Below are positions 29,154 through 31,812 of a DNA stretch of 37,778 bases, piece by piece. The stretch is from a virus. The DNA is taken from positions 1-37,778 of the IMG/VR virus record IMGVR_UViG_3300045988_141999; one strand, given 5' to 3'. The translations under genes and the position numbers were made by a program. Position 1 is the stretch's first letter. Each line of letters opens with the position of its first letter. Below the pieces are notes generated by a model, which was not told the DNA's origin, did no database searches, and was given only the letters and a program-made list of their open reading frames with translations.

Positions 29154-29190
29154 AAAAAGGCCCCTTGCGGGGCCAGGTGCATTTTTTGAG
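29154..29190. terminator. bidirectional terminator-like hairpin GGCCCCTTGCGGGGCC flanked by A5 (left) and T6 (right)
   Basis: Perfect 6-bp stem with a TTGC loop. Downstream of the MuF-associated small ORF. Confidence 0.5.
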
Positions 29191-29234: not shown

Positions 29235-29414
29235 CTAGGCGATGACCATGGCAATATCATCGTGATGAATCAGGTAAGTCAGCGGAGCGCCATCATCGAA
29301 ATCCGAGTGATCGGCAGGCTCGAACTCGTACGCCTCTCCATCTTTCCAAATCTCAACGATGTTCCCAACAGTACCGTCCTTGAGCTTGATTCTGGAAAAC
29401 ATCTCGACTTCCAT
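29235..29414 (-). CDS. small acidic protein (59 aa; MEVEMFSRIKLKDGTVGNIVEIWKDGEAYEFEPADHSDFDDGAPLTYLIHHDDIAMVIA), candidate immunity partner of the MuF C-terminal domain
   Basis: ATG is 5 nt after the MuF stop with a GGAAGGGG RBS inside the MuF 3' end. Lower GC. Below the track length cut-off. Confidence 0.5.
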   Translation of the reverse strand: MEVEMFSRIKLKDGTVGNIVEIWKDGEAYEFEPADHSDFDDGAPLTYLIHHDDIAMVIA

Positions 29415-29418
29415 GCCA

Positions 29419-30387
29419 TCACCCCTTCCGCCTTGCGACGTAAATTGTCGTTAACCTCATTTTATCCTTGTCGTGGTCTTTCATCCAGCCCACAACCACG
29501 CGCGCAGTCTTGCCGTTCTTTCCGACCATGACCATGTCCGTCGTGTAGCTATCGCCGTATTTTCCCGATTCCCTAAAAGCTGGCTCATGCTCGCCGACCC
29601 ATCTGTAGACCTGGCCCATGATCTCTCCAGCGTCTTCTTCAGTGAATCCGAGGGCGTCGCGAAAAGCTATCGCTTTGTCCCTGCCTCGCTCGCTTTCCAT
29701 GCACAGCGAATATCTTGTCAGCTTCGCCTCGGGAATCGTGAAGTTCTCCCGACCGCGCCATTCTCTGTGATACGACATCGGGTCGTATCCCTCAACGCCG
29801 TCCTTATCCCATGACGCGACAATGCGGCAGTCGCAGTTGTCGTGGTAGTGCCCAAACTCGCCAGCGGTCTTTTTCGAGTGGTACACGAAGCCCCTGCCAG
29901 CGAGCATCAGACAGAACTTGCACGTCTCGCCGCCGCTCGGCACGCGGGCGAATCTTGGCGAAAGGGGGTCGCGGGCGGCGTTTTCCATCATCGTCGTTCC
30001 GGCGGCGCGCTTTATCTCGTAGCCGACTCGCGACAGCACCAAGCGCTCGAATGCGTCGTAATCGCCGCCGTTCACCTTGTCAACGAACGCGCGTATCGCG
30101 CCCTCGGTAGCCGCTGGGTCTCGGTCCGCCGTAGTGATCGCTCCAAGCTTCTCGCCGACGGCCATCTCGCGCGACACGTCGAAGAAATCCGCCGCTGCCT
30201 GCCCCGCCGCCAAGCCGTAGCTGTCCAACACGGCATTCACCACGTCAATAACGGCGTCTCGGCACGCTGACACGTCGTTCCAATCAAGCTCCTTGAGCAC
30301 GCGCAAGACTTTCGCCTTAGCGTCGGCGGAAATGCCGTTGATCTCCTTCGTCAGGTAGTCGAGCGCGGCGCGCGGAATCTGCGCCAT
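29419..30387 (-). CDS. MuF/SPP1 gp7-family head morphogenesis protein with a C-terminal extension of about 125 aa
   Basis: Phage_Mu_F core ending GETCKFCLMLAGRGFVYH ... HYHDNCDCRIV. Extra C-terminal domain (...KYGDSYTTDMVMVGKNGKTARVVVGWMKDHDKDKMRLTTIYV) not part of the MuF core. Confidence 0.85.
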   Translation of the reverse strand: MAQIPRAALDYLTKEINGISADAKAKVLRVLKELDWNDVSACRDAVIDVVNAVLDSYGLAAGQAAADFFDVSREMAVGEKLGAITTADRDPAATEGAIRAFVDKVNGGDYDAFERLVLSRVGYEIKRAAGTTMMENAARDPLSPRFARVPSGGETCKFCLMLAGRGFVYHSKKTAGEFGHYHDNCDCRIVASWDKDGVEGYDPMSYHREWRGRENFTIPEAKLTRYSLCMESERGRDKAIAFRDALGFTEEDAGEIMGQVYRWVGEHEPAFRESGKYGDSYTTDMVMVGKNGKTARVVVGWMKDHDKDKMRLTTIYVARRKG

Positions 30388-30390
30388 GGC

Positions 30391-31812
30391 TTAGCCCTCC
30401 ACCGTCTCTGAGGCGGTGGAGGCGGGCTTGGCCCCGCCCATGATGGCGAGCAGAGCGCGCTGGTTCTCCCCAGCCTTGAGTTGCGACGCGACGCTCTCCA
30501 CCTCGCTCGGCGTGAAGCCCTGGCCGCGCAGGAACTCGCGCGTTTGCGCGAATCCGTCGAGGACGCCCGCGATCTTCACGTAGGCGTCGGCGGTGGAGGC
30601 GAGTGAGGGGCGCATCGGGTTCTTGAAATCGGGCATGACGGTCAGCTGCTTGTCGGAGAGCTGGTCGAGCGTCTTATTCTCAGCGACGGCCATGGCCATG
30701 AGCGCGACGTTCCGCATGCTCTCGCGGTTCGTCTCGATGCAGTCCTCCGCCGCCACGCAGATGTCCTCGCGCTGGGCCGCGATGGCCTCGGCGCTCGCGG
30801 GGTTGTCCTGCACGATGCCGAGCGAGTTGAGTGGGACGCCAGTGGCCCCGCTGAACAGCTTGGCGTATGTGGCGATGGAATCGATGTAGGGCTTCGGGCT
30901 CGCCGCTTGCAGGCGCTTGTAATCGGGGGCGTTGCCGTCGTTGTCGCGCGTCGCCATGAAGAGCGATGTGACCATGACGGAGAACTTGCTGCCGCTCATG
31001 GCCTTCAGCTGGTCCTCGGTCACCCCCGTCAGGATGTCCTTTGGTGTCGCATAGAGCGCGCCACTCACGGCCATGTAACGCAACGTGCGCTGCACCTCGT
31101 CAACGTAGTAGCGGACGGCGGGCGTGATACGCGACTGCCCGAAGGGCTTTGTACCCGTGGGGCGGAAGCAGAACGCCTCCATCATCGGGCGGTCGAGCGG
31201 CGTGGGATTGCTCACCGCGCTCCACTTGCCCGCGCTGTGCTGCGTGATCACCACTACGCGGTGCGGGAGGTGGAGGTTGACCTGCACCGGCACGGGCGTG
31301 GACGGGCTCCACTTGGTGCGGCGCGAGTCCGCGATGACGAAGCCCGCCGCGATGCGCTGCTCCGCCACGTCCCAGATGGCGGCGGCCGTCTCGGCGGTGT
31401 GCGTGCGGACCGCCACCGACTCGCCGATGCGCTGGACGGTGGCGAACATGCAGCCGTGGACGAGCTCGCTCGCGACATGGCGGTTGAAGTTGGCACTCAG
31501 GCCGTTCGCGCGCTCGATGCGCTCGAGCGTCGCGTCCTTGTAATCGCCCGCGAACGTGAATCCGCTCATGCGGACGCGCTCGGAGACGCTCGTGACCGCC
31601 TTCGCGGCCCAGTCGCAGCGGGTCGGGATGTCGACGGTCTCGGGGATGTTGTCGATGCCGATAGAGGGCGTCGGCTGCTTGCACTCGTAGTACTGCCCGA
31701 GCATGCGGTTCGTGCCCTGGTGCTTCTTGTAGACCTCCACCAGCTGCTCGAGCGCGGTCTTGGCCCCGGCGTCGAGGCCCGCAGCGTTGGTGATGTTTGC
31801 GAGTTCTACCAT
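30391..31812 (-). CDS. portal protein (473 aa)
   Basis: Size, composition and position directly after the large terminase. Confidence 0.85.
   Translation of the reverse strand: MVELANITNAAGLDAGAKTALEQLVEVYKKHQGTNRMLGQYYECKQPTPSIGIDNIPETVDIPTRCDWAAKAVTSVSERVRMSGFTFAGDYKDATLERIERANGLSANFNRHVASELVHGCMFATVQRIGESVAVRTHTAETAAAIWDVAEQRIAAGFVIADSRRTKWSPSTPVPVQVNLHLPHRVVVITQHSAGKWSAVSNPTPLDRPMMEAFCFRPTGTKPFGQSRITPAVRYYVDEVQRTLRYMAVSGALYATPKDILTGVTEDQLKAMSGSKFSVMVTSLFMATRDNDGNAPDYKRLQAASPKPYIDSIATYAKLFSGATGVPLNSLGIVQDNPASAEAIAAQREDICVAAEDCIETNRESMRNVALMAMAVAENKTLDQLSDKQLTVMPDFKNPMRPSLASTADAYVKIAGVLDGFAQTREFLRGQGFTPSEVESVASQLKAGENQRALLAIMGGAKPASTASETVEG

Follow-up and report, generated by a model that had tools for sequence, protein, structure and literature searches.

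The locus described here, from a temperate siphovirus of Collinsella, is best explained as a toxin/immunity pair of the MuF polymorphic type, in which a predicted BECR-fold RNase toxin is carried by a head protein and is followed by a DUF4926-like immunity protein. We assign to this reading a probability of about 0.78. The toxin/immunity interpretation of the pair is strongly supported by the sequence comparisons presented below, and the pair is a clear new example of the phage-borne polymorphic toxins already described, not a new toxin family. The window, which is the whole stretch of 37,778 nucleotides analysed, belongs to a temperate Collinsella phage with a serine integrase, and this lifestyle matches the description of the MuF-toxin family (PMC5576092). 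The features of the locus are as follows.

29419..30387, minus strand: fusion of a MuF-type minor head protein with a C-terminal putative toxin domain, 322 aa, stop codon included (ORF list, Pfam VG15 and DUF6883, PHROG)
29755..30378, minus strand: MuF core, Pfam VG15, residues 4-211 (E=6.9e-59)
29779..29796, minus strand: conserved junction motif VEGYDP, residues 198-203 (read from the sequences)
29434..29748, minus strand: DUF6883 toxin domain, a predicted BECR-fold ribonuclease, residues 214-318
29422..29429, minus strand: Shine-Dalgarno GGAAGGGG of the small ORF, inside the final MuF codons (sequence read)
29235..29414, minus strand: 59-aa acidic ORF, the predicted cognate immunity protein, a divergent DUF4926-like small beta-barrel
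29276..29725, minus strand: mosaic low-GC block of the toxin domain and most of the immunity gene, apparently exchanged as a unit (identity profiles, GC3)
29154..29174, minus strand: terminator-like hairpin GGCCCC-GCAA-GGGGCC followed by TTTTT (consensus scan, a consensus match only)

The minus-strand order of the genes is a 489-aa ORF, the portal, the MuF gene, and the scaffold-like and capsid-like genes, the last two assigned by their position. The portal gene (30391..31812) is located directly upstream of the MuF gene, and the 489-aa ORF, at the position of a large terminase, gave no family match. A tape measure protein and a large serine recombinase are encoded in the same window, and the MuF gene is placed in the DNA-packaging and head module of a temperate tailed phage. 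Both ORFs were found where an earlier sequence-only reading had put them, with lengths of 322 and 59 residues on the minus strand, and the peptides quoted in it are all present. The gap between them, given there as 5 nt, is 4 nt as measured from the MuF stop TGA (29421-29419) to the ATG of the small ORF (29414-29412). The proposal of a ribosome binding site in the MuF 3' end, and of coupling, holds, because the Shine-Dalgarno sequence (29429-29422) lies within the final codons of MuF, at a spacing of 7 nt from the ATG.

The 322-aa protein matches the PHROG head-and-packaging families in addition to Pfam VG15, and no direct match was found to Pfam Phage_Mu_F (PF04233). The VG15 core probably belongs to the family named MuF4 by Jamet et al. 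Compared with MuF genes from other phages and prophages of Collinsella, it shows 55-99% identity. An extension beyond the core is present, as the sequence-only reading had claimed, but its borders were misplaced: the core was thought to end at HYHDNCDCRIV (residues 180-190), leaving about 125 aa. Since the VG15 match reaches residue 211 and DUF6883 occupies residues 214-318, the extension is about 111 aa long. Nor is it without a recognisable family or a new toxin domain, as was then suggested. It scores 68 bits against the existing Pfam family PF21814 DUF6883 (cutoff 27, E=1.1e-18), with model positions 6-109 of 110 covered. The partner of the domain resembles DUF4926.

The two products have complementary charges. 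The extension is mildly basic, with a pI of 8.7, and the 59-aa ORF is acidic, as previously described, with a pI of 4.2 and a net charge of about -10. The low GC content noticed in the small ORF is real (GC 0.494, GC3 0.62) but is not confined to it, as the extension is also low (GC 0.548, GC3 0.67). The values for the MuF core and for the portal, terminase, capsid-like, scaffold-like and methyltransferase-like genes are 0.61-0.68 for GC and 0.80-0.95 for GC3.

It is important to consider where else the DUF6883 domain occurs. Among 906 cluster representatives the median number of residues following the domain is 0, i.e. it is strictly C-terminal. The carriers (n=111) include Phage_min_cap2 in 27 cases, VG15 in 19 and Phage_Mu_F in 11, together with intein/HINT in three and one each of RHS with PT-HINT and PT-TG; three MuF-type families end in DUF6883. 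Some of the matches bear the name filamentous hemagglutinin, and DUF6883 cassettes are present in CdiA/TpsA (Fil_haemagg) loci. A C-terminal toxin-type domain is thus common to MuF proteins and to the other polymorphic-toxin families (RHS/PT-HINT, PT-TG, HINT and filamentous hemagglutinin). An ORF of 63-69 aa, assigned to DUF4926 in precomputed Pfam annotation, lies 0-11 nt behind DUF6883 in Neisseria meningitidis, Providencia, Anaerosinus and Pectobacterium. Among GenBank phages, megablast with the region and tblastn with two DUF6883 domains gave no match, and therefore no isolated phage with DUF6883 could be named. NCBIfam and PADLOC searches gave no matches, and no experimental work on any DUF6883 protein was found in the literature searched.

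The relationship of the 59-aa ORF to DUF4926 was approached by several profile comparisons. Directly, it matches Pfam PF16277 DUF4926 with 20.8 bits (E=2.6e-4), under the gathering cutoff of 29.1, and the match spans only model positions 14-39 of 57; such weak matches were obtained for 11/11 members of the small-ORF family. When this family was aligned by hhalign with the ORFs downstream of DUF6883 in other phages, using a target alignment that excluded the window sequence and was therefore non-circular, the probability was 98.8% (E=1e-16), and 20 of those 32 ORFs match DUF4926 at E<0.01. Comparison with the four DUF4926 proteins from CDI loci alone was weaker (probability 61%, E=8e-5). An iterative HMM search of 3,642 ORFs, seeded only with these four proteins, gave 91 matches, of which 90 are immediately downstream of a DUF6883 ORF; the remaining one is an orphan copy beside a toxin stub. 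The search also recovers the window ORF. In the loci fetched for DUF6883, for which a six-sequence alignment was used, the small-ORF family follows the domain in 90/93. As judged by these profile methods, the 59-aa ORF is homologous to the DUF4926 members despite its sub-threshold Pfam score. The AF2 model of the protein is five-stranded (pLDDT 82). A single-sequence search of the PDB with the small ORF gave nothing, and a BFVD fold search gave only uncharacterised proteins that share a generic small barrel (best E=4e-3), which are of no help on membership.

According to its predicted model, the DUF6883 domain has the fold of the BECR (Barnase-EndoU-Colicin E5/D-RelE) RNase toxins. The model is a compact alpha/beta structure with N-terminal helices packed on a four-stranded antiparallel sheet, and it is similar to known BECR members. 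No sequence-level relative of the extension was detected in the PDB by single-sequence and profile searches, so the link to tRNases rests on the predicted model, at 13-22% identity. In DUF6883 the residues K222, Y226 and K238 are invariant and R311 and T313 are conserved. They are located in secondary-structure elements analogous to those of the toxin from Klebsiella pneumoniae 342 (Kp342), where the catalytic residues are K157, Y160, H170, R252 and T255. From this pattern the five DUF6883 residues may be regarded as candidate catalytic residues. No conserved counterpart of the active-site His of the Kp342 and EC3006 toxins was found in DUF6883. Our best guess is that the toxin is a metal-independent RNase, probably a tRNase. 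That the domain is a toxin of the BECR/RelE superfamily but not a tRNase, acting instead as a RelE/HigB-like mRNA interferase, an rRNase or a ParE-like gyrase poison, appears unlikely. A bioRxiv 2026 classification of BECR ribonucleases (10.64898/2026.08.28.747851) contains six mentions of DUF6883, two of DUF4926 and one of MuF.

Among the sibling phages of Collinsella, some have the cassette of the window, others a diverged allele of it or another C-terminus with another small ORF, and some have neither cassette nor small ORF. Past the VEGYDP motif, which is found in the window and in L011, L012, L016 and L017 (AEGYGP in L013), the related MuF proteins go on with different C-termini. DNA identity to L015 begins to fall in the next 75-nt bin after the motif, at about residue 221; at the protein level the L015 allele is 78% identical in the toxin and 81% in the immunity protein. 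Identity to L015 and L005 is 95-100% upstream of position ~29726 and 67-84% inside the block, and for L015 it returns to 96-97% downstream. The pattern is reversed for L002, with 52-75% in the core and 80-84% in the cassette. The MuF proteins of L016 (253 aa) and L011 (324 aa) lack DUF6883, and the small ORF (<150 aa) directly downstream is absent from both; the core of the relatives without the two genes is 74-85% identical. The 324-aa protein of L011 has an extension of its own that is not DUF6883. In L012 and L017 a different, weakly colicin-D-like C-terminus (E=0.03) is found, and the small ORF is replaced by an acidic ORF of 114 aa. L017 has, in addition, an orphan immunity gene, preceded by a remnant of about 35 nt from the 3' end of DUF6883. 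The prophage remnants L001, L003 and L004, in which deletion or truncation has affected the portal and scaffold-like genes, have intact MuF-DUF6883 and immunity ORFs. This shows that the pair can persist without a virion delivery route.

The sequence-only reading had recognised the layout of a MuF-borne toxin/immunity pair, and this is strongly supported by the shared C-terminal module, the predicted BECR fold, the linkage in 90/93 loci and the relatives with a swapped or absent cassette. The opposite pattern, an extension integral to MuF proteins together with a non-conserved small ORF, was not found in the relatives.

These results allow us to propose the following scheme. The 211 N-terminal residues, encoded beside the portal gene, would serve as a MuF-type (VG15) minor head protein, and residues 214-318 as a modular DUF6883 toxin of the BECR fold, in which K222, Y226, K238, R311 and T313 may carry out the RNase reaction. 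The translationally coupled 59-aa protein would protect the producing cell by binding the toxin and neutralising it. Computation shows the domain architecture, the fold of the predicted model, the linkage of the toxin and immunity families, the cassette polymorphism and the setting in a temperate phage; toxicity, RNase activity and its substrate, and neutralisation by direct binding are what we infer for the pair. The toxin domain and the immunity gene would travel jointly as a low-GC cassette that recombines just past VEGYDP, so that toxin/immunity alleles differ among the sibling phages and are absent from some. In analogy to SPP1 gp7, and as proposed by Jamet et al. 2017 (PMC5576092), the toxin may be packaged in the capsid and ejected into the infected cell. 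The full version of this scheme, in which the toxin is true virion cargo and a few copies of a BECR tRNase on MuF are injected with the DNA, is possible but doubtful. If it is true, the outcome of infection and the competition of Collinsella strains in the gut would hinge on the matching immunity gene of the recipient. The orphan immunity gene of L017 and the pairs of L001, L003 and L004 would then be footprints of a phage-host arms race over toxin alleles, and high-GC actinobacterial phages would have acquired the low-GC cassette from outside, perhaps from the DUF6883 cassettes that abound on Phage_min_cap2-type MuF proteins.

The pair might also be a genuine toxin/immunity module that acts within the lysogen, by addiction, abortive infection or superinfection exclusion, and is not injected cargo. 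A resident immunity gene might then guard against incoming phages with the same toxin, and the MuF fusion would be a hitch-hiking spot in a well-expressed late operon. The remnants that keep the pair without complete portal and scaffold-like genes agree with such a role, as do the orphan gene of L017, the terminator-like hairpin located ~60 nt past the small ORF, and a fold family that also takes in the type II TA toxins RelE, HigB, BrnT and ParE. However, the phage loci examined have the domain as an in-frame C-terminal fusion to MuF-type head proteins of three families, which is hard to explain unless attachment to a virion protein matters. In addition, a consensus scan found no promoter-like site ahead of the cassette, and a small downstream immunity gene without a DNA-binding domain is the order of polymorphic toxins, not of type II TA systems. 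We consider an action restricted to the lysogen rather improbable. An ordinary type II TA system (RelBE/ParDE) was rejected as an identity for the locus, as the toxin is not free-standing but part of a fusion with a 211-aa head protein, and the partner is located downstream, is predicted to be all-beta and has no match to a DNA-binding domain.

A further interpretation regards the extension as a non-toxic structural or DNA-binding head appendage and the small ORF as an unrelated small head or decoration gene. Many MuF C-terminal extensions lack a proven toxin function, as noted by Jamet et al. (PMC5576092), and L011, with its non-DUF6883 extension and no small ORF, would fit this description. 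However, DUF6883 ends RHS, PT-HINT and PT-TG proteins and occurs in CdiA/TpsA loci unconnected with capsids, and the small-ORF family trails it in non-phage loci too. The close relatives with cores of 74-85% identity manage without both genes, and the base composition of the cassette is foreign. On the grounds of these contexts, the linkage, the absence in relatives and the base composition, the appendage interpretation was rejected as hardly credible.

The preferred reading of the locus, a MuF polymorphic toxin with its immunity protein, leaves current concepts unchanged because the findings fit them. MuF toxins are believed to be widespread among gut prophages. This locus places a predicted MuF toxin in Collinsella (Coriobacteriia), an abundant genus of the human gut. 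It provides a compact test case, with a predicted RNase of 111 aa, a predicted immunity protein of 59 aa and candidate catalytic residues, for which the sibling phages with a diverged allele, another toxin or no cassette are natural controls. It also suggests a functional hypothesis for two Pfam DUFs whose genomic linkage over phage, CDI and RHS contexts is near-perfect: DUF6883 would act as a BECR RNase toxin, and DUF4926 as the corresponding immunity protein.

The locus can be compared with several known systems. MuF proteins in general are little known (PMC12226406), and the prototypes SPP1 gp7 and Mu GpF are encoded, like the window protein, after the portal in the head module, which is the basis for proposing that a few packaged copies may leave the capsid with the DNA; unlike the window protein, they have no toxin extension. 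The MuF polymorphic toxins (Jamet et al. 2017, PMC5576092) have the same portal-adjacent MuF head protein with a variable C-terminal toxin domain, a small ORF immediately 3', and an origin in temperate phages of the human gut microbiome. They differ in that the window core is VG15, presumably the actinobacterial MuF4, a family seeded on gp4 of mycobacteriophage Angel (PMC5576092), and not PF04233. In the literature searched, only the (p)ppApp-synthetase type of MuF toxin was found to have been studied experimentally. This is Apk2/IapK/Aph1 of a Streptococcus pneumoniae prophage (PMC12226406), in place of which the window has DUF6883 and a single immunity gene.

The cassette would work like a CdiA-CT/CdiI pair. 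Such pairs of K. pneumoniae 342 (PDB 6CP9) and E. coli 3006 (EC3006; PDB 6CP8, 6VEK) have toxins that are BECR-fold acceptor-stem tRNases; the Kp342 toxin has reportedly been assayed in vitro on deacylated tRNA in the presence and absence of EF-Tu, EF-Ts and GTP. These toxins have no detectable sequence likeness to the window toxin, and their catalytic His is not conserved in DUF6883. The immunity proteins also differ: CdiI-Kp342 is reportedly a dimeric beta-sandwich and CdiI-EC3006 an alpha-solenoid, as Gucinski et al. are said to have described in 2019, while the window protein is a predicted DUF4926-like barrel of 59 aa. A CDI (CdiB/CdiA/CdiI) locus was rejected as an identity, since the carrier is a MuF head protein and the window proteins scanned gave no TPS or Fil_haemagg matches. 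Further counterparts are the DUF6883/DUF4926 cassettes of the CdiA/TpsA loci of Neisseria meningitidis, Providencia alcalifaciens and Anaerosinus massiliensis and of a Pectobacterium island, which have the same families, order and spacing; the window toxin is 27-44% identical to distant DUF6883 members. The CDI-type cassettes are free-standing orphans or CdiA tips in Proteobacteria and Negativicutes, and their DUF4926 proteins of 63-69 aa contain an insertion of about nine residues that the Collinsella protein lacks.

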